Assembly (NCBI GenBank): GCA_934293005.1
Contig: CAKQYA010000005.1
Location: 37,275 to 101,274 of the forward strand
From: an uncultured Bacteroidaceae bacterium
Lineage (GTDB): Bacteria > Bacteroidota > Bacteroidia > Bacteroidales > Bacteroidaceae
Reading direction: 5' to 3'
Length of the DNA: 64,000 bases
Shown: positions 2,571-38,955 of the stretch, in pieces
Layout of the letters: each line of letters opens with the position of its first letter
How positions within the stretch are numbered: position 1 is the first letter of the stretch
Translations under genes and position numbers: made by a program
The notes under the pieces: model-generated
What the model was told of the DNA's origin: nothing
The model's database searches: none
The model's input: the letters and a program-made list of their open reading frames with translations, nothing else

Positions 2571-3644
2571 ATGAGAAAAGCAACATTGATTCTTGATGAC
2601 GGCACCCGCTTTGAGGGCTTGTCTTTCGGCTATGAGAAACCTGTGGCAGGAGAGGTTGTGTTCAACACTGCCATGACAGGTTATCCCGAGAGCCTCACAG
2701 ACCCGTCTTACGCCGGTCAGCTCATGACGCTGACTTACCCGCTTATAGGCAATTATGGTGTACCTCCTTTTACATTCGGTTCCAACGGATTGCCTGATTT
2801 TATGGAGAGCGAACGGATCCATGCAGAAGCTCTCATCGTGAGCGATTACAGCGAGGAGTGCAGTCATTGGAACGCTAACGAGACTCTTGCCGAATGGCTC
2901 AAGCGTGAGCATGTGCCAGGCATCACTGGCATAGACACGCGCGAGTTGACAAAGGTGCTGCGTGAGCATGGCGTGATGATGGGACGTATTGTCATGGAGG
3001 GCATGGGTGATAATGTTGAATCATTGCCATATTCTTCTGTCAATTATGTTGACAAGGTCTCTTGTTCCGAAGTGATACGCTACAATGAAGGAGCTGATAA
3101 GACTATAGTGCTTGTCGATTGTGGCGTTAAGAGCAACATCCTCCGTTGCCTCATCAAGCGCGGCGTGGAGATAATACGCGTGCCATGGAACTACGATTAC
3201 ACTTCCATGCCATACGATGGCATATTCATCAGCAATGGACCTGGCGACCCTGACATGTGCGGAGAGGCTGTTGACAACCTGCGCCGCGCCATGACTCTAA
3301 GCGATAAACCCATCTTTGGCATCTGCATGGGAAACCAGCTTCTTGCCAAAGCAGGTGGCGCCAAGACATACAAACTGAAGTATGGACATCGCAGTCATAA
3401 CCAGCCTGTGCGCATGGCTGGCTCTAACAAATGCTTCATCACAAGCCAGAATCACGGCTTTGCTGTGGATGACGCCACTCTCGGCTCCGATTGGGAACCA
3501 CTCTTCTATAACATGAACGACGGTTCTAACGAAGGCATTCGCCATAAGAGCAAGCCTTGGTTCTCTGTGCAGTTCCATCCTGAAGCTGCCAGTGGACCGA
3601 CCGACACAGAGTTTCTTTTCGATGAATTTGTTAAAATGTTGTAA
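2571..3644 (+). CDS. carA: carbamoyl-phosphate synthase small (glutaminase) subunit
   Basis: ORF 2511-3644; conserved CarA N-term starts at internal Met (MRKATLILDDGTRFEG); class-I GATase motifs GICMGNQLL, H..F.VQFHPEA. Confidence 0.85.
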   Translation: MRKATLILDDGTRFEGLSFGYEKPVAGEVVFNTAMTGYPESLTDPSYAGQLMTLTYPLIGNYGVPPFTFGSNGLPDFMESERIHAEALIVSDYSEECSHWNANETLAEWLKREHVPGITGIDTRELTKVLREHGVMMGRIVMEGMGDNVESLPYSSVNYVDKVSCSEVIRYNEGADKTIVLVDCGVKSNILRCLIKRGVEIIRVPWNYDYTSMPYDGIFISNGPGDPDMCGEAVDNLRRAMTLSDKPIFGICMGNQLLAKAGGAKTYKLKYGHRSHNQPVRMAGSNKCFITSQNHGFAVDDATLGSDWEPLFYNMNDGSNEGIRHKSKPWFSVQFHPEAASGPTDTEFLFDEFVKML

Positions 3645-3715: not shown

Positions 3716-6700
3716 ATGAATGACAAAATAAAGAAAGTGCTGCTCCTTGGATCTGGAGCGCTAAAGATAGGCGAGGCTGGCGAGTTTGACTATTCGGGCT
3801 CTCAGGCTCTCAAAGCTTTGAAGGAAGAGGGCATACATACAGTGCTCATCAATCCAAACATTGCCACAGTGCAGACTTCTGAGGGTGTGGCAGACCAGAT
3901 ATATTTCTTGCCGGTCACTCCATATTTCGTGGAACGTGTGATAGAGAAAGAACGTCCTGATGGAGTGCTTCTCTCTTTTGGTGGACAGACAGCGCTCAAT
4001 TGCGGTGTTTCCCTCTTCCGCGACGGAGTGTTTGAGAAGTATGGCGTAGAGGTGCTTGGCACCCCTGTGCGTGCCATCATGGACACGGAAGACCGTGAGC
4101 TCTTTGTGGAGCGTCTCAATGAGATTGACGTTAAGACCATTAAGAGCGAGGCTGTGGAAAATATTGAAGATGCGCGCAGGGCTGCCAAGGAACTTGGCTA
4201 TCCTGTAATCATACGCGCGGCCTATGCTCTTGGCGGACTTGGAAGTGGATTCTGCGATACAGAGGACGAACTCAATGTCCTGGCTGAGAAGGCTTTCTCA
4301 TTCTCTCCGCAGGTTTTGGTTGAGAAAAGTTTAAGAGGATGGAAAGAGGTTGAGTATGAAGTGGTGCGCGACTGTTACGACAACTGCATCACTGTCTGCA
4401 ATATGGAAAACTTCGATCCATTAGGCATACATACAGGTGAAAGCATTGTCATTGCCCCATCGCAGACATTGTCCAACAGCGATTACCACAAACTTCGTGA
4501 ACTGGCAATCCGCATTGTGCGTCATGTGGGCATAGTGGGCGAGTGTAATGTGCAGTATGCCTACGACCCAGAGAGCGAGGATTATCGCGTCATCGAGGTC
4601 AACGCTCGTCTTAGTCGTTCATCGGCCCTTGCGTCAAAGGCCACAGGCTATCCGCTTGCTTTCGTGGCAGCGAAGCTGGGTCTTGGCTATGGCCTTTTCG
4701 AGTTGAAGAATTCTGTCACCAAGACCACAAGCGCATTCTTTGAGCCTGCGCTTGATTATGTGGTGTGCAAGATTCCGCGTTGGGATCTCGGCAAGTTCCA
4801 TGGTGTAGACCGTGAACTTGGCAGTTCTATGAAGTCGGTAGGTGAAGTCATGGCTATTGGCCGCACATTTGAGGAGGTCATTCAGAAAGGTCTTCGCATG
4901 ATAGGGCAGGGCATGCATGGCTTTGTCGGAAACAAGGAACTTGTTATTGAAGATGTAGACAAAGCCCTTCGCGAGCCAACAGATAAGCGCATATTCGTCA
5001 TATCAAAGGCCATGCAGCAGGGATACACCGTTGACCATATTCATGAGCTGACAAAGATTGACCGTTGGTTCCTCCAGAAGCTTAAGAAGATTGTTGACAC
5101 TTCTGATGAACTCACGAAGCACAATGCTGACACCCTTCCTGCCGACCTCCTCCGTAAGGCTAAGGTGCAAGGATTCTCAGATTTCCAGATTGCTCGTGCC
5201 ATCGGCCTTGAATCAAAGATGGGCAGTGAGGATGGCTCTATGGCGGTGCGCTCATTGCGCAAGAAGATGAACGTCATGCCTGTTGTCAAGCAGATTGACA
5301 CTCTTGCTGCTGAATATCCTGCCCATACCAATTACCTGTATCTCACATACAGCGGCACATCAAACGATGTGCAGTATGTTGGCGACCACAAGTCTATTGT
5401 GGTGCTTGGCAGCGGAGCCTATCGAATAGGTTCCAGCGTAGAGTTCGACTGGTGTGGTGTGCAAGCATTGCAGACCATACGCAAGCAGGGCTACAGAAGT
5501 GTGATGATCAATTACAACCCGGAGACAGTCAGCACCGATTATGACATGTGTGACCGCCTTTATTTTGATGAACTCACTTTCGAGCGTGTGCTCGACATCA
5601 TAGAATTGGAAAATCCGCATGGCGTCATAGTCTCTACCGGCGGACAGATACCAAACAATCTTGCTCTGCGTCTTGATACGGAAGGTGTGAATATCCTTGG
5701 CACCAGTGCTGCAAGTATCGACAATGCCGAAGACCGTGACAAGTTCTCTGCCATGCTTGACCGCATTGGAGTGGATCAGCCTGAGTGGAGCGCTCTCACG
5801 TCAATGGACGACATCAACAAGTTTATCGACAAGGTTGGTTTCCCTGTGCTTGTGCGTCCATCCTATGTGCTTAGTGGAGCGGCCATGAATGTGTGCAGCA
5901 ATCAGGAGGAACTTGAGCGTTTTCTCAGTCTTGCGGCCAACGTGTCGAAGAAGCATCCTGTGGTGGTGAGCCAGTTTATACAGCACGCCAAGGAGGTGGA
6001 GATGGATGCTGTGGCACGCAATGGCGAGATAATTGTATATGCAATATCTGAGCATATCGAGTATGCTGGAGTGCATTCGGGCGATGCCACAATACAGTTC
6101 CCACCGCAGAAACTGTATGTTGAGACCATGCGCCGCATCAAGCGTGTGAGCCGTAAGATAGCTCGTGAACTCAATATCTCAGGTCCATTCAATATCCAGT
6201 TCCTTGCACGCGAAAATGACATCAAGGTCATAGAGTGCAATCTTAGAGCTTCGCGTTCATTCCCGTTTGTCAGCAAAGTGCTCAAGATAAACTTCATCGA
6301 ACTTGCTACCAAGGTCATGCTCGGACTTGATGTGGAGAAACCAGGCAAGAACCTCTTCGACCTCGACTATGTTGGCATCAAGGCAAGCCAGTTCTCATTC
6401 AACCGCTTGCAGAAGGCTGACCCAGTGCTTGGTGTAGACATGGCTTCCACAGGTGAGGTAGGATGCATAGGCGACGACACTTCGTGCGCAATTCTGAAAT
6501 CAATGTTGAGTGTAGGCTACCGCATTCCTGCAACAGACAAGGGCATACTTCTCTCAACAGGCGATGCCAAGCAGAAAGTGGACATGCTGGCTGCTGCCCA
6601 ATGGCTGCAAAAGAAAGGCTACTGCATCTATGCCACTGGTGGCACATCGGCCTTCCTTGAGCAGAATGGAGTGAGCAATACACGTGTCTACTGGCCAAGC

Positions 6701-9038: not shown

Positions 9039-9285
9039 ATGCTTCATTAGCTGAAAGAGTGTCATATTGCTCTGTGATCATGAAAATACTCCCAAGGAAG
9101 AGTGCGTGTTTCATATTTTATTCGTACTTTTGTTATGTCATTCAGAGTATCGTCCCACTTTTATCTTGTGGCACAGAGGTAAGTGTTTTTTTCCTGATAT
9201 GATGCGATGCTGAGCATTTTTGTGTTACTTAGGCGTTGCGAATTATTTTAATTATTGTGCCGTGCTGAAAAATGATGAATTTAAC

Positions 9286-10371
9286 ATGAAGAGAAATGAG
9301 ATTTGCTACATTGTTGTTGTGGCTATTATTGGAGTGTCGTTGTTTTTAGGATTTGCAGAAGAAGTGTTTGCTGTTAGTCTTGGCAAATTTGCATGGACGG
9401 CACACTGGGTGTCATCGCCTGTGGCGCTGGCTTTGGGTTTAGCTTTTGCTCTGCTTTTAGGCAAGGCATTTCCTGTGTTTAATAAGACCATGTCTAAAAA
9501 ACTGCTGCAATATTCCGTTATAGGATTAGGTTTCGGAATGAACGTGGACAAAGCGCTGGCATCGGGAAGTGAAGGTATGCTGTTCACTGTGGTCAGCGTG
9601 TTTGGGACACTTGCCCTGGGCTGGCTCTTTGGACGAAAGATTCTGAATGTAGATTCACAGACGAGCTACTTGCTTAGTTCAGGAACAGCCATATGCGGCG
9701 GTTCGGCAATAGCAGCTGTTGGGCCAGTAATCAAAGCTAAGGCAGAGAGCATGTCGGTGGCATTAGGCGTGGTTTTTGTTCTAAATGGCATCGCTCTGTT
9801 CTTGTTTCCATCTATTGGCAATGCCTTAGGCATGACGATGAAGCAGTTTGGCATGTGGGCAGCCATTGCTATCCACGATACATCTTCTGTGGTAGGTGCA
9901 GGTGCGGCATACGACCAGATGCATCCCGAACTTGTTGCCAGTCAAGGAGTGAGTGCGCTTGAGGTTGCCACAACCATCAAGCTTACGCGAGCTTTGTGGA
10001 TAGTGGTGTTGGCGTTGGTCACACCATTCTTCTTCCGCAGATCGCTTGCAGAGTCGGGCGGAATGTCGAAGCCTTGGTATAGCTGTGTGCCACGTTTCAT
10101 CATTTGGTTTATTGTGGCCATAATCTTCAATACATATATATTAAGCAACGCTTCGCTTATAGGCTATGGTGCCGCAGCAATAGGAGGCGAGTTGAGTGGT
10201 GCTGTCAGCAAGCTTGCCAAGCATCTCATCACGCTTTCGCTTTTCTTTATCGGTGCGTCGCTAACCAGAGAAACGTTGCGTAGCGTTGGTCTCCGCCCTC
10301 TTATCCAAGGTGTGCTGCTATGGATAAGCATCAGCTGCATCAGCCTTGTATATATCTTTGGGGTGGGATAA
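9286..10371 (+). CDS. YeiH/UPF0324 family putative sulfate-exporter membrane protein
   Basis: ORF 9220-10371, likely start MKRNEICYIVV; polytopic membrane protein with YeiH-like glycine-rich segments; TAcTTTTG box near 9122. Confidence 0.6.
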   Translation: MKRNEICYIVVVAIIGVSLFLGFAEEVFAVSLGKFAWTAHWVSSPVALALGLAFALLLGKAFPVFNKTMSKKLLQYSVIGLGFGMNVDKALASGSEGMLFTVVSVFGTLALGWLFGRKILNVDSQTSYLLSSGTAICGGSAIAAVGPVIKAKAESMSVALGVVFVLNGIALFLFPSIGNALGMTMKQFGMWAAIAIHDTSSVVGAGAAYDQMHPELVASQGVSALEVATTIKLTRALWIVVLALVTPFFFRRSLAESGGMSKPWYSCVPRFIIWFIVAIIFNTYILSNASLIGYGAAAIGGELSGAVSKLAKHLITLSLFFIGASLTRETLRSVGLRPLIQGVLLWISISCISLVYIFGVG

Positions 10372-12831: not shown

Positions 12832-12879
12832 GAGAAGCGTTTCGTCATCATGACACGAAACGCTTCTTTTGCTTCTTAT
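12832..12879 (+). terminator. rho-independent terminator after pyrG
   Basis: gagaagcgtttcgtcat-catgac-acgaaacgcttc followed by ttttgcttc. Confidence 0.7.
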
Positions 12880-13182
12880 GAGTGTCAAAAGCTATTTGCA
12901 TGTGTAAATATGCGTGTTAATCTGTCAGGAGTGTTTATTTATATGTATCATAACACCTGTAAAGTGCTTAATTGTATGGATGCCGTAATTATTTTGCAAA
13001 AAAACATGCATATTTGAGATTTCTTTTGTATCTTTGTTTTGGCTTTGAATTTTTATCTTTATTATTTGGCGATTATAAAGATACTCATTTTTGTGGGGTA
13101 TAAAACGATAGAGCCTTTTGTTTTAAAATTAAGTTGAATCTTGTTTGTTTTTTTACTTACATAACTTTAGTAAATTTATAAT

Positions 13183-14207
13183 ATGGATAAATTAGTAACG
13201 GTTGTAATCCCCTGTTATAATGCTGAGAAATGTATAGGCTCTTGTCTTAAAAGTGTATTGTCACAAACATATTCTAATTTGGAAATAATTGTGATTAACG
13301 ATGCATCTAAAGACAGAACGCTGTTGAAATTACAGGAGTATGGAAAGATTGATAGTAGAATCAGAGTACTGAATAACCTACAACAGGGGGGGTAGATATT
13401 TCACGATTCCGTGGAATATCAGAGGCTAATGGTGATTATTTGTGCTTTGTGGATGCTGATGATTGGATTCCAGGCAACGCCATAGACATAATGGTTAAAC
13501 ATGCTGAAGAAACAAATGCGGATGTTGTTGAAGGTGGTATGACAAGAGTGTTGGGAAGACACAAATTTGCAAAATATTTCCACACAAAAACTTATAAAGA
13601 AATTACAACACCAGAACTCTTTGATGATTATTTCATTTCATTCTTCGGAGTGAATATTCTTAGTGTGAATTTATGTGGAAAAATATTTAAAAAAGAATTG
13701 TTTCAAAATCCTGAATTGAAACCGTCTGGTTTTAAGATGGGTGAAGATTTGATACTGAATATGCGAATATTCCCTTCTATTTCAAAATATATAGTTATAG
13801 AAGAAAATGTTTATTTCTATCGATATGGCGGTGGTACATCCCGTTATAATCCAAATATGTATTCTGATTTGAAGTCTCAGTATTATATAAAGTTGGATGC
13901 TATCAAGAAATATAAATACGCCAAAGCCCTTCGAACTACAAAAATCGAAATGTGTAATGTGTTGCATAGTCAGATTATACAAATGTTGGTTTATGGCTAT
14001 CCTTATTCTGATGTGAAGGATTTCTTTGCTGAAGAAGTTGCTTCAGGGTTTGTAGATGAAATAACGAAAGACGTTGATTACAGACTTGATTATTATCCTT
14101 TATTAAAGAAAAAGGATATAGATGGAATTATTGCTTTAGACAAAGAGGTTGTACGTAAAGGAAAAATAACAAAGATAGTCAAACATCTTTTAAATAAGCT
14201 TTTGTGA
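13183..14207 (+). pseudogene. family-2 glycosyltransferase interrupted by a -1/+2 frameshift inside a G7 homopolymer (candidate phase-variable gene)
   Basis: frag 1 (13183-13395): MDKLVTVVIPCYNAEK...IIVINDASKDRT...RIRVLNNLQQGG*; frag 2 frame, read upstream of its called start: GGVDISRFRGISEANGDYLCFVDADDW... (GT2 NxGGxxxARNxGIxxAxGDYxxFxDxDD motif); the two frames fuse if the G tract were 8 (or 5); islet is ~33% GC versus flanks. Confidence 0.75.
13386..13392 (+). repeat. poly-G (G7) homopolymeric tract at the frameshift point of the GT2 gene
   Basis: caacaGGGGGGGtag; ORF1 stop TAG immediately follows the tract. Confidence 0.9.
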
Positions 14208-14383
14208 ACATGAATGGTCACATGCTGTTGAAACAAATTATGAACATCTTCTTTTGCAAATTGTCTGCGACCACTTGCTTGCGATATTGCTTTATGTGAT
14301 TTTTTCAGCTTTATTGTTGCTCAACTTGAAATATTGTTGTATGTTTGCATGTGATTATCAATATTTATTTTTAAGGTAAAGTT

Positions 14384-14977
14384 ATGAATGTAAAGAAAAA
14401 TCTGGGATGGATCATCCCTCTTGCTATTGTGGCATTGCTTGCTCTATGGGGAGCAGGGGCGTATAACGGCATGGTTTCCATGGACGAGAATGTGCAGAAC
14501 AAATGGGCTAATGTGGAAACACAGTATCAGCGTCGTGCGGACCTCATACCTAATCTGGTCAACACCGTTAAGGGATATGCTGCACATGAGAAGACCACAC
14601 TGGAGGATGTGGTGAAAGCTCGCAGTGAGGCAACATCTGTAAAGATTGACCCAACCAACATCACGCCAGAGCAGATGAAGCAGTATCAGGCGGCTCAAGG
14701 CAGCGTGTCGTCAGCACTCGGACGCCTGCTTATGGTGGCAGAGAACTATCCTGAACTGAAGGCTAATGAGAATTTCCTTGAACTGCAGTCGCAGCTTGAG
14801 GGCACAGAAAACCGCATCAATGTGGCGCGCAAGGATTTCAATGATGCAGCCAAGGAATATAATGTGAGCATCCGCCGTTTCCCAAAGAGCATCATCGCTG
14901 GAATGTTTGGCTTTGAGAAGAAGACATATTTTGAAGCTGAGGCTGGCAGCGAGAAAGCTCCTGAAGTTCAGTTTTGA
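14384..14977 (+). CDS. LemA family protein
   Basis: 197 aa; N-terminal TM helix, then LemA-like sequence (NKWANVETQYQRRADLIPNLVNTVKGYAAHE...). Confidence 0.8.
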   Translation: MNVKKNLGWIIPLAIVALLALWGAGAYNGMVSMDENVQNKWANVETQYQRRADLIPNLVNTVKGYAAHEKTTLEDVVKARSEATSVKIDPTNITPEQMKQYQAAQGSVSSALGRLLMVAENYPELKANENFLELQSQLEGTENRINVARKDFNDAAKEYNVSIRRFPKSIIAGMFGFEKKTYFEAEAGSEKAPEVQF

Positions 14978-15039
14978 TGGTAGCAACTTGTAAAGCATAT
15001 CCTGAAGAATATTGGTTCAATAGGACAAACGCATCGTTC

Positions 15040-15957
15040 ATGAATATTAAGAAATGTATCTTGGCTGTTATTGCAGTATGGCTCATGTCGTTTCATCTTA
15101 TGGCTTCCGAAACAGTGGCTTACAAGGTGGAAACGGTGCCTAATGTGCGTCTGCAAGACAGCAGAGAATATGTGTCAGACCCAGCATCGCTGCTCACTGC
15201 TGCAACGCATGATAGCATCAATGCCATTTTCTCGCGCCTTGAGTCTTCCACAGGCATTGAGGCAGCTGTTGTCATGTTGCCATCAATAGGTGAGGCTGAT
15301 CCATTCAGTTTCTCTGTTGATTTGTTCAGACGATGGGGCATCGGCAAGAAAAAGAATGATAATGGCTTGTTGGTTCTGTATGTGGAAGACCAGCATAACA
15401 TACGCTTCACCACTGGCTATGGTATAGAAGGCACACTGACTGACGCTCTGAGCAAACGCATACAGATGCGCTATATGGTGCCAGCCTTTAAGAATGGTGA
15501 CCGCGACAGGGGCATGTTGCAAGGGTGCAAGGCCGTGGCAGGCGTGCTTGACGGCTCTATGCAGCCAGACGAGACTGAAGACGAATATGACTTTATTGGC
15601 GGTCTGGTTATCGCCATGATTATTTGGGCGGCTATTTTGATGATGGTCGTTCTGTCACGCCGCAAGCGCAAGTGCCCTCAGTGCAAGAAGCGCAAACTTG
15701 TGTTGCGTTCTTCTCGTGAACACATTGTCAATGGACGTCATTACAGAAAGAGCGTGTATCAATGTTCTCACTGCGGCAAAGTGGTGGAAGAGGACCGACG
15801 CGCAGATGACGATGATGATGGAGCACTCTTGACTGGCATGACCATAGGTTCAATCTTAGGCAGCAGTCGTGGTGGCGGTTTCAGTGGTGGCGGTTTCAGC
15901 GGCGGAAGCTTTGGAGGCGGCAGCACTGGTGGAGGCGGAGCAGGATCAAGCTGGTGA
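15040..15957 (+). CDS. TPM (YgcG-like) domain protein with TM helix, Zn-ribbon (CPQC...CSHC) and Gly-rich tail
   Basis: ORF 14974-15957, likely start MNIKKCILAV (signal/TM); LemA-TPM gene pairing is a common synteny; tail GGGFSGGGFSGGSFGGG. Confidence 0.7.
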   Translation: MNIKKCILAVIAVWLMSFHLMASETVAYKVETVPNVRLQDSREYVSDPASLLTAATHDSINAIFSRLESSTGIEAAVVMLPSIGEADPFSFSVDLFRRWGIGKKKNDNGLLVLYVEDQHNIRFTTGYGIEGTLTDALSKRIQMRYMVPAFKNGDRDRGMLQGCKAVAGVLDGSMQPDETEDEYDFIGGLVIAMIIWAAILMMVVLSRRKRKCPQCKKRKLVLRSSREHIVNGRHYRKSVYQCSHCGKVVEEDRRADDDDDGALLTGMTIGSILGSSRGGGFSGGGFSGGSFGGGSTGGGGAGSSW

Positions 15958-27330: not shown

Positions 27331-27471
27331 TGATATATTGAGTCTCCTTTTTAAAAGGGGGCTCAATATTGTTAAATCGCATTTGGAGTTGTATTTTATG
27401 CGTAAATGTCTACATGTTGCATTTTTTTTGTAAAAAAAATCAAAGGTGATAGGCATGTAAAAAAAAAAGAG

Positions 27472-27609: not shown

Positions 27610-30606
27610 ATGAGAAGATTTTTACTACTTCCATTATGCGCACTCTCTATGTCGAGCAATGCGCAGGTGACACCAAAGGTGTTGCCAGAAATTCCTGTCG
27701 CAGGACAGAAGTACATTCTTGTCAACAAAGCTCAGACTGCCACACAGTACATGTCACGCACATCTTGGGACGGCTCTCTCTATTTCCTTGGAGAGAAAGA
27801 TTCCAATTATGCTGACAATGCGCTCACCGCTGTAGACAACAATGATGGCACATGGTCGTTTGTCAGAGTGGTGAAAGAGGAACGTGAAACAGGCGAAGTG
27901 GACGGCGAGGGAAATGCTGTCAAGGAACTTGTCGACGTGACTTATTATATGGGCATTCCTGATGGCACAGCTAATGTGAAGAGCAACCTCACCACACCTG
28001 CCTATTGGAAACTGTGGGACATGAAGAATGGTTTCTATAACCTTATCATGGGTGAGGGCAACAATGCCACAGCATTGGAGATGGCAACGTACACTCCGAC
28101 AAAAGACTTGCGTCTGCATCTCAATAATGGTGGCCAGTATTTTGTGGCAACATACTATACAGGTCCTTGGTATCCAGACTGTCAGGGCGGCATAAAAGAA
28201 ACAGAGAACGAGAGTGATGGAACAGTGCAGTTTGAGGCAAATGATTCCACATCATTCAACTGGGGCTTCGTGTCTGTCGAAAAGGTGCCAGACTACTATA
28301 AGGATATGCAGTATTCAGGCACCATCAACAAATTCTATGAGAATTACTGCAACATGGATGAATATGGAGCAGGCTTCCTCGCTACATACAACGTTGTGGC
28401 AGAGGCATACAAGAACGCCACTAACTATGATGAACTGGCTGAATTGGATATAGAAGGCACGATAAATGCAAAGATTGCCCTGCAGAAGGAAATCGATGCA
28501 GCAATTGCTCTTAATGAGAAAGAAGACGCAGTGCTGTCTGCTGCTATTGCTGCTGCTATGAATGCTTTCAACACTATCACAGCAAAGGCTGACGTGGAGA
28601 ATGCCGCAACCACTCTTAAGAAGGCTGAGAATAACTATTCTCTTGGCACAGGTGATGTGTCTTCTCTTGGCACAAACATGTCGTTTGAAGATCTCGCTTC
28701 TCAGAATGGAAACATGACGACAGGTGTAGGGCCTGCTCCTTATGGATGGAATGTGTATATAAACGGCAAACTTGCCAACTCTGTTGAGGAAATCAAGGCT
28801 GCTGGAGTAAATGCATGGCATGGTGTGAATGATGACAGTGAGGGCGATGTGAAGGATGGACAGATGTCATTCGGAATATGGAATTCAAACATTCCAAATT
28901 ATGAAATATCACAAACTATCAAAGGCCTGGCAAATGGCACTTATGAGATCACTGCAGGCTTGATGGCAGGAAACAACAATGGTCCTCGCCTCACCACACA
29001 ACGCATCTTTGGCAATCTCAACTCAACTTACTACGCAAGCGATGCTGATTACGACCTTTCTGTTCTTGATAAATCAGAAGTGAGCGAATTTGCAGGCAAT
29101 GAGATTCTTGTCACAGACCGTGAGATGCGTCCTGTGACAGTGAAGGCTTTCGTGTATGACGGAACTCTCACATTTGGAGTGCGCACTGATAACAACCTTG
29201 CTGCTACATTCAATGGCGGCGCATCTAATGCCGGTGCAGGATGGTTTAAGGTGGACAACTTCACTATCAAGTCTTTAGGATATGATGCTGCTGATGCTAT
29301 TGCGATATATAATCACTACACAAAGGCTCTCGATTCTTGGGAAGACCAGCCTATGAGCAAAGCTGCAGCCGAAAAACTTGCTGATTTCATAAAGACAATG
29401 GACAACATCACAGAAGCGAGCTCACAAGAAGACATCATAGCAGGCATCATCGCTGCAAAGGGACTTATGGATGAAGTGAATGCATCTGTGAAGACTTACG
29501 AGAAACTTGCCGCGCTTATCGAAAAGCATTTCACAAGTCTCGAACAGTATGAAAACAAGACTGGCGCAGGCGATTATTCCGACGTGATTTATTCAGTCCA
29601 GGAACGTTATGACGAACGTACAGTTGTGGATGATGCAGAGGTGGATGAAATCTCTAAAGAACTTGACGCAGCTCTTGAGGCTTGCATCCAGTCGGATGAC
29701 ATCGAACCAGGTTCTGTGCTGACAGAGTATATCAAGAATGCTTCTTTTGAAGACCTCTCTAATCAGAACAATAACAATAGTGGCGGTGTCGAAAACGCTC
29801 CTAAGGGATGGAATCTCTACATCAACGGCACACAGGTTAATACAGCTGCTGAGATATCAGCCGCAGGAGTGAAGGCTTGGTGCGCTATCAATGGCGGCGA
29901 TGCGATAAATGTGGAACTTGAAAATGGCGATATCGTCAACAATCAATATACTGATGGTGACCATCTATGGGGTATCTGGACAGAAGAAATTCCAGAGATT
30001 GAACTCTCGCAGACCATTAAGGGTCTGCCTGAAGGAACATATACTGCTACTTGCGATGTGCTCGTGCAGTATAACTGGGCTGGTTACTGCATCACTACTC
30101 AGCGAATCTTCGCCAACGACTACGTGGCAATGTACTCTTATGAAGGCAACTATGAGAACAACCTTCCAGAGGATGCTCGCATCGCACAGGAAATAGACGC
30201 TCTCAACCCTGATGCCGAACTGAAACACCTTACATACGCAGGCCATGAGTGTGAGGCTCCACGCTCTGACTACTCTAACAAGGTTTCTCTCACTTTCGGT
30301 CTTGCAAAGAAAGGCGACATCAAACTTGGCTTCCGCACAAACAACATTGACCGCGACGGTGTGGCTCAGGGCAGCGGTAAGGGATGGTTCAAACTTGACA
30401 ACTGGACTCTGACTTACGATTCAACAGAAGTTCCTGCAGGAGCAGGTACAGGTGCTGATGCCACAGGTGTGGACTCTATCACAGAGAATGCAGGTGGAGA
30501 GCCTGTGGAGTTCTACTCTGTAGATGGAGCTCGCCGCTCATCTCTCCAGACTGGCATTAACATTGTCAAGATTGGTGACAAGGTTTCAAAAGTCATCGTG
30601 AAATGA
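27610..30606 (+). CDS. T9SS C-terminal-sorting-domain secreted protein with two tandem homologous beta-rich modules separated by helical linkers
   Basis: 998 aa; signal peptide MRRFLLLPLCALSMSSNAQ; module A (~aa 355-545) and module B (~aa 700-935) share SFEDL..QN...GV..AP.GWN.YING...EI.AAGV.AW...GIW...IP..E.SQTIKGL..GTY...TTQRIF.N and end G(A/K)GWFK(V/L)DN(F/W)T; C-term EFYSVDGARRSSLQTGINIVKIGDKVSKVIVK = Por/T9SS CTD. Confidence 0.8.
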   Translation: MRRFLLLPLCALSMSSNAQVTPKVLPEIPVAGQKYILVNKAQTATQYMSRTSWDGSLYFLGEKDSNYADNALTAVDNNDGTWSFVRVVKEERETGEVDGEGNAVKELVDVTYYMGIPDGTANVKSNLTTPAYWKLWDMKNGFYNLIMGEGNNATALEMATYTPTKDLRLHLNNGGQYFVATYYTGPWYPDCQGGIKETENESDGTVQFEANDSTSFNWGFVSVEKVPDYYKDMQYSGTINKFYENYCNMDEYGAGFLATYNVVAEAYKNATNYDELAELDIEGTINAKIALQKEIDAAIALNEKEDAVLSAAIAAAMNAFNTITAKADVENAATTLKKAENNYSLGTGDVSSLGTNMSFEDLASQNGNMTTGVGPAPYGWNVYINGKLANSVEEIKAAGVNAWHGVNDDSEGDVKDGQMSFGIWNSNIPNYEISQTIKGLANGTYEITAGLMAGNNNGPRLTTQRIFGNLNSTYYASDADYDLSVLDKSEVSEFAGNEILVTDREMRPVTVKAFVYDGTLTFGVRTDNNLAATFNGGASNAGAGWFKVDNFTIKSLGYDAADAIAIYNHYTKALDSWEDQPMSKAAAEKLADFIKTMDNITEASSQEDIIAGIIAAKGLMDEVNASVKTYEKLAALIEKHFTSLEQYENKTGAGDYSDVIYSVQERYDERTVVDDAEVDEISKELDAALEACIQSDDIEPGSVLTEYIKNASFEDLSNQNNNNSGGVENAPKGWNLYINGTQVNTAAEISAAGVKAWCAINGGDAINVELENGDIVNNQYTDGDHLWGIWTEEIPEIELSQTIKGLPEGTYTATCDVLVQYNWAGYCITTQRIFANDYVAMYSYEGNYENNLPEDARIAQEIDALNPDAELKHLTYAGHECEAPRSDYSNKVSLTFGLAKKGDIKLGFRTNNIDRDGVAQGSGKGWFKLDNWTLTYDSTEVPAGAGTGADATGVDSITENAGGEPVEFYSVDGARRSSLQTGINIVKIGDKVSKVIVK

Positions 30607-30985: not shown

Positions 30986-31696
30986 TTAATCCTTGCTCTT
31001 CAGTGCGGCATCTATTGTGTCGGTCCAGTCGATGGCTGGAGCTGCTACCACTTTGCCGTTGCGTGTCGTCGACACATCTGCGTGCATGGCATGAAAGCCA
31101 AGTGCTCTTGCTGCTTCGACATTTGGAGTTGAGTCGTCTATGAACAGGCACTCTGATGCTGGAGAACCTATTTCCTTGAGCATGGCAAGATATATGTCGT
31201 CATTGGGCTTTGCCATATGCATCTCCTGCGAAAGAAATGTGTGCTTGAAGATGCTGTCGACAACGTCTTGGCCTCCAAAGCAACGGGAAACGATGTCTTG
31301 CCAGTGTGCGTCGTTGGTGTTTGAGAGCATATATATGCCATAGCCCATGTCGCGCAAACGGCGCAGCTTGTCTAATCTGTATTGAGGAATGCCTATGCAG
31401 CATGTGTTCCATGCGTCAACCACTTGCTTCATGGTGGTGCCTGCATGGCAAAGGTTATGTATGGCTGTCAGAAAATCGTGTGTGGTCACAGTGCCTATCT
31501 GATATTGGTTGAGCATGCCGTTGGCAACTACTCCCTCTCCCATGACTGCCGGCTTCATGCTGGGGGTGTCGTTGGAAGGTGATGGCTGTGGAAGTGCGCT
31601 TAGATCAACGCCGAGCGTCTCAACGCTATGCATGCAGTAGGGCAGGTCTATGTCGAGGAGTACGCCGCCGAGGTCGAATATGATGTTCTTTATCAT
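30986..31696 (-). CDS. HAD-superfamily hydrolase (subfamily IA-like)
   Basis: 236 aa; motif I MIKNIIFDLGGVLLDID; DDS motif near C-term. Confidence 0.75.
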   Translation of the reverse strand: MIKNIIFDLGGVLLDIDLPYCMHSVETLGVDLSALPQPSPSNDTPSMKPAVMGEGVVANGMLNQYQIGTVTTHDFLTAIHNLCHAGTTMKQVVDAWNTCCIGIPQYRLDKLRRLRDMGYGIYMLSNTNDAHWQDIVSRCFGGQDVVDSIFKHTFLSQEMHMAKPNDDIYLAMLKEIGSPASECLFIDDSTPNVEAARALGFHAMHADVSTTRNGKVVAAPAIDWTDTIDAALKSKD

Positions 31697-31762
31697 GGTT
31701 ATGATTCGTGGTTTTTGGGGGGATCCTTTGGTGATTTCAGCAATGATTGCTGTTGTGATGGC

Positions 31763-38881: not shown

Positions 38882-38955
38882 GGTTCGGTAGCTCAGCTGG
38901 ATAGAGCAACAGCCTTCTAAGCTGTGGGTCTTGGGTTCGAATCCCAACCGAATCA
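38882..38955 (+). tRNA. tRNA-Arg (anticodon TCT)
   Basis: 74-nt cloverleaf: acceptor ggttcgg/ccgaatc (one G-U), D-arm gctcagctggatagagc, anticodon stem acagc/gctgt with loop cttctaa, T-arm ttggg-ttcgaat-cccaa. Confidence 0.85.

Follow-up and report, generated by a model that had tools for sequence, protein, structure and literature searches.

What does it mean when a glycosyltransferase (GT) gene is interrupted exactly within a run of identical nucleotides? This question is raised by a locus in a 64,000-nucleotide stretch of DNA from an uncultured Bacteroidaceae bacterium (contig CAKQYA010000005.1, positions 37,275 to 101,274), which we call the window and whose own numbering we use throughout. 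Between pyrG and lemA, two adjacent open reading frames (ORFs) meet at a run of seven G nucleotides (G7). A preliminary description, made from the sequence alone, took them for the two halves of one family-2 GT and proposed a candidate phase-variable gene, with G8 or G5 giving an intact enzyme and G7 being OFF. Our comparison of strains strongly supports this candidacy: we consider it likely that the tract serves an orphan, glycan-decorating GT as a slipped-strand contingency switch, and that this GT is OFF in the window.

Under this hypothesis, the G homopolymer in the coding sequence (CDS) would gain or lose single Gs through slipped-strand mispairing at replication. Tracts of G8 (or G5 or G11) would be read through and the enzyme made (ON), while G7 (as in the window), G6 and G9 would stop translation after ~70-84 residues (OFF). 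The ON enzyme would attach a side-branch sugar to a surface polysaccharide whose synthesis is encoded elsewhere in the genome, and a switch of the tract would thus change the cell-surface glycan heritably and reversibly. In this scheme, slippage as the cause is our inference, as are how reversibly and how fast the tract switches within a clone, which glycan is the acceptor and which agents (phage, immunity) exert selection.

The reading frames and the G tract

The upstream frame ends in NNLQQGG (RIRVLNNLQQGG before the TAG at 13393-13395). The GT frame, entered at 13392, reads GTA GAT ATT and onwards (VDISRFRGISEANGDYLCFVDADD...), through to the stop at 14207. The mechanically generated list of ORFs contains this 3' part as 13440-14207 alone, an ORF of 255 amino acids (aa) with an artefactual TTG start. 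Adding one G yields a continuous protein of 341 aa, and removing two yields one of 340 aa. More generally, G5, G8 and G11 are in frame (340-342 aa), and G4, G6, G7, G9 and G10 truncate the product at 69-82 aa. A change of one repeat unit thus toggles the frame, as is characteristic of contingency loci that depend on a homopolymeric tract (a run of about seven or more inside an ORF).

The translation with one G added matches PF00535 over residues 6-130, across the junction (E = 1.5e-33; 116.6 bits, with a gathering cutoff of 23.3), which confirms that the two ORFs are halves of one GT2. Natural intact G8 copies at the same pyrG-GT-lemA site agree with the frame arithmetic of the preliminary description.

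The tract is the sole run of at least seven Gs or Cs in the 64-kb window. It is important to consider that such a run might arise by chance: dinucleotide shuffles of the window contain 1.45 G7 runs on average, and at least one in 69 of 100 shuffles. Because a lone G7 in 64 kb is not beyond chance, the case rests on the position of the tract and on comparative data.

Tract length differs between close relatives

Tract lengths were read from consensus assemblies (NCBI, ENA and Logan) and compared between strains; for product counts, we read 40 of the 186 members of the ≥90% cluster. The preliminary description named a homopolymer sequencing error as its alternative, in which case the real gene would be G8 and intact, and homopolymers are indeed error-prone on some platforms. 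However, the exact 70-aa product of the G7 state (P0121) occurs on 96 contigs, and the exact 255-aa downstream product on 51 contigs (in 58 blocks of the assembly collection). These independent assemblies include a Hadza scaffold with 80x coverage (L122). Moreover, one copy (L002) matches the window at 100% identity over 4819 bp, G7 included, and the A7 (12998-13004) and A6 (13689-13694) runs within the same alignment, which comprises 20 full-length copies, never vary. We therefore reject an error of sequencing or assembly, whose probability we regard as close to nil.

Other tract states were found on the same background. In addition to the 70-aa product, the exact N-terminus of the window's gene is carried by an 81-aa product (G6; three contigs) and an 82-aa product (G9; three contigs), and full-length proteins of 341 aa (G8) in the same cluster are found on 12, 6 and 3 contigs. 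At the DNA level, where the tract is flanked as CAACA-Gn-TAGATATTTCACG, the lineage of the window includes copies with G6 (L001, L123 and L124), with G7 (L002, L120-122, L126 and L129, as well as the window) and with G8, which are ON at the same pyrG-GT-lemA position (L090-099 and L125). Some copies in different states are nearly isogenic. L001 (G6) and L096 (G8) differ by one mismatch and the tract gap over 2853 bp, and in a sister allele, P0001, an ON copy (L003) and an OFF copy (L100) differ by three mismatches and the tract gap over 3303 bp. Tracts of G6 to G9 are thus found on identical or 99.9% identical backgrounds. Both ON and OFF states were seen in all four tract-bearing alleles.

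Ten long contigs were retrieved via LemA, and hence independently of tract state. Of the ten, one is ON by net frame; relative to ON, six lack one base and three lack two. Two sub-alleles have additional changes near the tract, namely a 1-nt deletion 5 nt upstream of it (L127) and a T>G change at its 3' edge (L128), for which the ON form is P0134 (QQGGGD).

We also mapped tract states onto a neighbour-joining tree of 23 copies (1125 ungapped columns, tract masked). The state changes at least six times on a tree totalling 0.0616 substitutions per site, or about 100 times the rate of an average site, and the ON copies fall in two separate clades. Changes among identical tips (L121 and L124, L120 and L123, and L001 inside the L090 clade) are free of retrieval bias.

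Two further scans contributed little. A pattern scan of JGI metagenomes gave one match, the G7 ON allele L089, which is too few for a census. A scan of genome contigs with the back-translated repaired protein gave only distant GT2s (≤46% identity, partial), as the patterns match generic GT2 motifs.

Integrity and constraint of the gene

Every OFF copy examined (more than 30, from three allele lineages) becomes an ORF of 340-342 aa after a one-G change of the tract, and we found no second lesion in any of these copies. The comparison of orthologues that the preliminary description called for thus reveals differing tract lengths, both ON and OFF, and none of the disruption elsewhere that is expected of a plain pseudogene. 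Among the 20 full-length copies of the lineage, indels in the CDS (1025 nt) occur only at the tract and at the deletion in L127. The non-coding flank (575 nt) has eight indel events, which correspond to 14.2 expected in the CDS, where one was observed outside the tract (P = 1e-5). Indels are therefore depleted about 14-fold in the CDS outside the tract.

Substitutions tell a similar story. Between alleles, the ratio of nonsynonymous to synonymous divergence (dN/dS) is 0.08-0.13. Within the mostly-OFF lineage, the corresponding polymorphism ratio (pN/pS) is 0.50 (p = 0.017 versus neutrality), and there are no nonsense mutations, where 2.9 are expected. These patterns show a gene under constraint, albeit somewhat relaxed, as would befit part-time exposure to selection, and not a decaying pseudogene.

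Conservation of the tract across alleles

Intact orthologues at 84%, 80% and 70% protein identity have the run at the same two Gly codons. The sequences are AAT GGG GGG GTA in P0001 (ON length G7), CGG GGG GGG GCA in P0002 (ON length G9) and AAT GGG GGG GTA in P0006 (ON length G7). The GGG-GGG pair is therefore kept in four alleles, among which synonymous divergence (dS) ranges from 0.6 to saturation (>1). In the long ORFs of the window, GGG accounts for 4.9% of Gly codons, and GGGGGG encodes none of 77 Gly-Gly pairs. Retention of the pair by chance in four lineages is very improbable (about 1e-6, as a rough inference rather than a computed value). Conservation despite synonymous divergence and a codon bias against GGG argues that the repeat is maintained by selection.

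The sister alleles are also interrupted, and always at the tract. In P0001, which was found in pig gut, G7 is ON and G8 is OFF; the 274-aa form that begins MGGVDIS occurs on 37 contigs, and the 342-aa forms on 20, 14 and 9. In P0002, a G9 OFF form (...KQGGGRHVSIPWNL) is found on 15 contigs and the 341-aa form on 44, with G8 or G9 being ON. In P0006, G7 is ON, and a 274-aa OFF form (MGGVD...) is on 12 contigs. The alleles P0003 and P0004 have GTC GGG GTC at this site and lack the tract. Since the family consensus here is a single Gly (N-x-G-V-D), the tract itself accounts for the doubled Gly. Control clusters without a tract are almost all full-length, e.g., P0018 at 341 aa and P0057 at 346 aa.

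A second poly-G site in the family

A branch of the family at ~49% identity lacks the tract at the main site and carries an independent run of Gs at codons 8-10. The gene in L131 (an ENA contig, ERZ4933519, at ~2734-2741) begins ATG AAT TGT AAA TAT AAA TTA ACG GGG GGG Gta agc ctc TAA, a G8 tract that leaves it OFF. The run is also present in RefSeq proteins of cultured Bacteroides acidifaciens and B. congonensis (WP_289705464.1, WP_301424874.1, WP_366915739.1 and WP_336527106.1), and the homologues in these species have at least six different N-termini. These include the ON forms MNCKYKLTGGGKPL (TGGGK; G9) and MNCKYKLTGGKPL (TGGK; G6), as well as the OFF-type MNGGGGKPL, which, judging from the protein alone, would be G11 read from a non-ATG start in another frame. 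Other OFF-type forms, of 337 and 340 aa, have annotated starts downstream of the tract. The Prokaryotic Genome Annotation Pipeline (PGAP) seems to accommodate this tract by choosing starts that are not ATG or that lie further downstream. By these sequences, the family has evolved poly-G tracts convergently, in the N-x-G-G-V loop and at codons 8-10.

Two other clusters of the family, each seen as proteins only, contain recurrent shortened forms that break at other sites. In P0041 (B. finegoldii), the C-terminus is frameshifted near residue 285 in forms of 299 and 290 aa, which occur on 108 and 40 contigs, and 351-aa forms occur on 32 and 16. In P0114 (Duncaniella muris), C-terminal fragments of 84 and 104 aa are on 19 and 55 contigs.

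A switch or a mutational hot spot

Several of our observations weigh against a switch. OFF dominates the lineage, both in nine of the ten contigs retrieved independently of state and in ~85% of counted product contigs. Cohorts are uniform in state (L090-099 are all G8, and L100-109 are all G8-OFF), so switching may be slow relative to Campylobacter, and tracts of G7-G9 are at the short end of fast-switching tracts in mismatch-repair-proficient bacteria. Several sets of loci were retrieved via products that depend on tract state, so that the proportions of ON to OFF are biased. The within-lineage pN/pS of 0.50 also fits partly relaxed selection. Finally, there is no glycan locus within the 64-kb window, so the acceptor is not given by the neighbourhood.

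These points lend some weight to the idea that the tract is a non-adaptive mutational hot spot, that its OFF alleles are recurrent neutral or slightly deleterious losses, and that an orphan GT is drifting to loss. The predominance of OFF, the contrast between a pN/pS of 0.50 within the lineage and ~0.1 between alleles, the secondary changes at the tract edge in L127 and L128, and the absence of a partner glycan locus nearby would all be expected of such drift. However, drift to loss does not sit well with the absence of a second lesion from OFF copies, the depletion of indels outside the tract or the two separate clades of ON copies. It is further at odds with the second, independent poly-G site in the family and with the retention of GGG-GGG across saturated synonymous divergence when GGG usage is 5%. 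A single synonymous change would remove a purely harmful hot spot, so this retention speaks against it. We consider a hot spot unlikely, although by no means negligible, and prefer the contingency switch. For a case made by comparison alone, the evidence for the switch is unusually strong.

Possible recoding at the tract

A different possibility is that a -1 ribosomal frameshift or transcriptional slippage at G7 gives a low level of full-length enzyme, in which case the state of the window would be "low" rather than "off". Such recoding would be compatible with switching at the DNA level. In the zero frame, caG-GGG-GGG-TAG is formally an X-XXY-YYZ heptamer, from which a -1 shift enters the GT frame (GTA GAT), although this holds for the G7 state of this allele only. 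G7 is the commonest state in the lineage of the window, and the tract is followed by a perfect hairpin, predicted to fold at -13.7 kcal/mol, that is found in three tract-bearing alleles (in the window and L090, in L003 with 9 bp and in L005 with 10 bp).

However, the hairpin is separated from the tract by 2 nt, and the typical spacer to a frameshift-stimulating structure is 5-9 nt. The hairpin is absent from L004 and L110, as well as from the tract-less L008, and shows no clean covariation, unlike a conserved stimulatory structure; local fold z-scores are weak (-0.3 to -2.4). Moreover, the common OFF state of the sister alleles is +1 (G8 where G7 is ON; G9 where G8 is ON), which is beyond rescue by a -1 slip. 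To our knowledge, all-G heptamers are not efficient slippery sites. We therefore consider recoding a very improbable explanation. The hairpin, which overlaps the conserved DISRFRGI codons, could be a by-product of coding, could act in frameshifting or pausing, or could promote slippage as a DNA structure.

Promoter inversion as an alternative

Phase variation through inverted promoters, as in Bacteroides capsule loci, is the standard mechanism in Bacteroidales, and the break at G7 might be incidental to it. Upstream of the gene there are weak inverted repeats (12906-12918 and 13003-13015; 13 nt, 92%), but they enclose just 84 nt, the window contains no recombinase gene nearby, and the segment is inverted in none of the 23 copies. 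The architecture of a Bacteroidales inverton is thus lacking, and we see almost no prospect that inversion, rather than a tract-based switch, accounts for this locus.

Two other loci (L008 and L009, 2365-4001) contain P0003, the orthologue without a tract, as a lone GT that is divergent from a tyrosine recombinase gene (Phage_integrase/Phage_int_SAM_5), across a gap of 434 nt. Inverted repeats of 11 nt (3500-3510 and 3839-3849) enclose 328 nt there. Here the same enzyme may be under the control of an inverton.

The predicted enzyme

By sequence and predicted structure, the enzyme belongs to family 2 of the glycosyltransferases, inverting enzymes of the GT-A fold. The DxD motif FVDADD is at residues 89-94 of the repaired protein, and D92, D94 and D95 are invariant in an alignment of 49 sequences of the family. 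No NCBIfam equivalog reaches its cutoff for the repaired protein; the best scores 84 bits, where 423 are needed. An AlphaFold2 model of the P0001 orthologue (84% identical; predicted local distance difference test score 94.4) has a GT-A Rossmann-like fold. In this model the Gly-Gly encoded by the tract is in a loop between the strand at 61-66 and the helix at 72-82, adjoining the invariant N69 and G71. Because the Gly-Gly sits in a loop, G5, G8 and G11, which differ by one Gly more or fewer, would be tolerated.

The top Foldseek matches of the model are all GT-A GT2 enzymes. The best full-length structures are CgT/GalT1, TarS, TarP and RmlT (TM-score ~0.68 over ~340 columns; 18-23% identity), and 5hea was also matched by sequence (E = 1.4e-24). 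Sister alleles are located in Wzy-type capsule or O-antigen-like loci, with an EpsG-family polymerase, GT2, hexapeptide acyltransferase, GT4 and Bac_transf genes. The most likely role of the GT when ON is to attach a side-branch sugar to a surface polysaccharide that is encoded elsewhere, i.e., a capsule, lipopolysaccharide (LPS) or lipooligosaccharide (LOS), or glycoprotein glycan.

In the P0001-allele loci L003, L100, L101 and L103, genes for AAA_15/AAA_21 ATPases are found 3' of the GT, joined in L003 by a DUF4276 gene. Placed at the edge of a capsule locus, this combination resembles a defence pair of the OLD or abortive-infection type.

Genomic context

Contigs of this species come from Hadza and other human gut metagenomes. 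Its PyrG is 86% identical to that of one sister lineage and at most 75% identical to anything else (~72% for metagenome-assembled genomes labelled Bacteroidaceae). In the window, the GT is an orphan among housekeeping genes (carAB, guaA, pyrG, the GT, lemA, a TPM-domain gene, upp and a permease gene), with ftsY and a Bat operon farther downstream of the permease gene. Features of the locus are given in Table 1.

Table 1. Positions of features at the pyrG-GT-lemA locus, in window coordinates
Feature	Position	Strand	Remarks
AT-rich islet between pyrG and lemA	12850..14383		GC ~0.30-0.37; the GT is its only gene
pyrG intrinsic terminator hairpin	12833..12867	+	left border of the islet; 13-bp arms, 9-nt loop, T-rich tail
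Candidate promoter TATCTTTG	13029..13036	+	inferred; only exact match to TAnnTTTG in the upstream gap, ~150 nt 5' of the ATG
Whole GT2 gene	13183..14207	+	OFF phase in the window; G8 would give 341 aa; intact G8 orthologues at the same pyrG-GT-lemA site
5' reading frame, product of the G7 state	13183..13395	+	70 codons, ending in Gly-Gly, then TAG at 13393-13395
Poly-G tract (G7)	13386..13392	+	last base of Gln68, then Gly69 and Gly70; in G8 also the first base of Val71
3' part of the GT, -1 frame	13392..14207	+	271 codons; FVDADD (DxD) motif and C-terminal helical domain; stop at 14205-14207
11-bp hairpin GATATTTCACG-ATTC-CGTGGAATATC	13395..13420	+	perfect; begins 2 nt past the G tract; overlaps conserved DISRFRGI codons

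As the preliminary description had noted, the GT is alone in a low-GC islet: GC content is 0.29-0.37 across ~12.8-14.4 kb and ~0.50 in pyrG and lemA, and there is no other gene between the two. Its suggestion that the islet was acquired horizontally holds in part. The relatives of the gene in capsule-type loci of other Bacteroidales are consistent with it, and so is the fact that homology to the sister alleles stops at the borders of the CDS (13151-14208). However, all 23 examined copies of this species have the islet, so it is not a recent, strain-specific island. We sought an empty site, i.e., the locus without the GT, in the sister species and found none. In that species (PyrG 86%), a major facilitator superfamily gene directly follows pyrG as part of a larger rearrangement, which is uninformative on the GT alone.

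The candidate promoter matches the Bacteroidetes -7 promoter consensus, TAnnTTTG. A sigma-70 promoter scan found 12 promoters, where 9 were expected; Bacteroidetes promoters lie outside that model. An Rfam search of the window found only a tRNA (38882-38955).

Strains also differ around the gene. In the L090 clade there is a 203-nt insertion between the GT stop codon and lemA (at window ~14237) and a 13-nt deletion 5' of the GT (12893-12905). A T7 run at 13148-13154 and a T6 run at 14300-14305 vary by one base among copies. Strains differ 5' of pyrG as well (window 9220-10371 versus positions 1-1297 of the L120 and L121 loci): the window and some strains have a YeiH-like Cons_hypoth698 gene there, and in others guaA is directly upstream. 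This suggests presence or absence of the Cons_hypoth698 gene, or a rearrangement, between strains.

Elsewhere in the window, the TPM-domain protein that follows lemA (14974-15957) has a Gly/Ser-rich tail (GGGFSGGGFSGGSFGGGSTGGGGAGSSW) and a start that overlaps the lemA stop; its annotated length is 326, 321 or 305 aa, depending on the strain. Apart from the G7 tract, the window has one G run of at least six (31717-31722), located in the 66 nt that separate two minus-strand ORFs and ~21-26 nt upstream of where the ORF at 30986-31696 starts. It is C6 on the coding strand, near the ribosome-binding region. The AT-rich intergenic region at 27422-27468 contains T8, A8 and A10 runs just 5' of a 998-aa ORF (27610-30606), which has no Pfam match.

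Relation to known systems

Switching by slippage is itself classic in Campylobacter, Helicobacter, Neisseria and Haemophilus. The closest likeness is to the poly-G GTs of Campylobacter jejuni that act on LOS, capsule or flagellin glycan (e.g., wlaN/cgtB and the Cj1295 class; PMC3068675, PMC7142995, PMC8355987). These are AT-rich glycan genes with an intragenic run of ~8-9 Gs, in which a change of one G toggles between the full-length protein and an early stop, and both states occur among close isolates. The C. jejuni enzymes have the GT-A fold and alter a surface glycan, which is predicted for the GT of the window too. Unlike them, the gene in the window belongs to a gut Bacteroidales host, is an orphan between housekeeping genes and has no sequence relation to them beyond the GT2 domain. 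Its states also look stable across cohorts, such that switching may be slower.

GTs switched by simple sequence repeats (SSRs) in Neisseria and Haemophilus (pgtA with its poly-G tract, lgtA, lgtC and lgtG, lic2A, and lex2) likewise have length-dependent translational ON and OFF states and add terminal or side-branch sugars. In pgtA, the presence or absence of the tract is allele-specific (PMC2193922), as it is here. Apart from taxon and niche, what differs is the place of the tract: that of the window is in N-x-G-G-V, the conserved nucleotide-binding loop, and not close to the 5' end, although in the second branch of the family it is at codons 8-10.

The invertible capsule promoters of Bacteroides share the expected outcome, i.e., stochastic, heritable heterogeneity of the surface glycan, and the sister alleles occur in capsule-type loci. 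However, a switch at the tract would be translational and confined to a single GT, and would change one sugar rather than a whole locus.

Among structural relatives, TarS and TarP (Staphylococcus aureus wall teichoic acid), RmlT (Listeria) and CgT/GalT1 (Streptococcus parasanguinis) have a GT-A domain followed by a helical C-terminal domain and attach side sugars to a polymer that is already made. One of them, TarP, is an accessory modifier acquired by horizontal transfer. With identities of 18-23%, and with teichoic acid and serine-rich adhesin acceptors that do not occur as such in Bacteroidales, this is a resemblance rather than membership.

Two reviews from 2025 agree with the contrast drawn in the preliminary description, which associated Bacteroidetes with invertase-driven flips. 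One, on phase variation, describes switching in Bacteroides via inversion only (PMC11868660). The other, on gut Bacteroidales, also describes inversion only, with no occurrence of "slipped" or "homopolymer" (PMC12632263). In the literature we found no report of SSR-driven GT switching in Bacteroides or Prevotella, which is not proof, as most papers in subscription journals were outside the search. The nearest report is a speculative remark on a C4-to-C5 frameshift in an acetyltransferase of B. fragilis (PMC3090145).

Implications

Phase variation in gut Bacteroidales has been studied nearly only as DNA inversions, and programs that find invertons detect only those. We give roughly even odds to a broader proposal, namely that gut Bacteroidales have a second layer of glycan phase variation that is independent of inversion, built on a family of decorating GT2s in which poly-G switches have evolved at least twice. 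The orphan copy would then be a slippage-driven modifier akin to a serotype-converting enzyme, and may change recognition by phage or antibody. Genes of this type are being annotated as pseudogenes or as two hypothetical proteins. The proposal can be tested on public reads and in culturable Bacteroides with a sister tract. If it is true, the surface heterogeneity behind phage susceptibility, immunoglobulin A recognition and strain persistence would have been partly missed.

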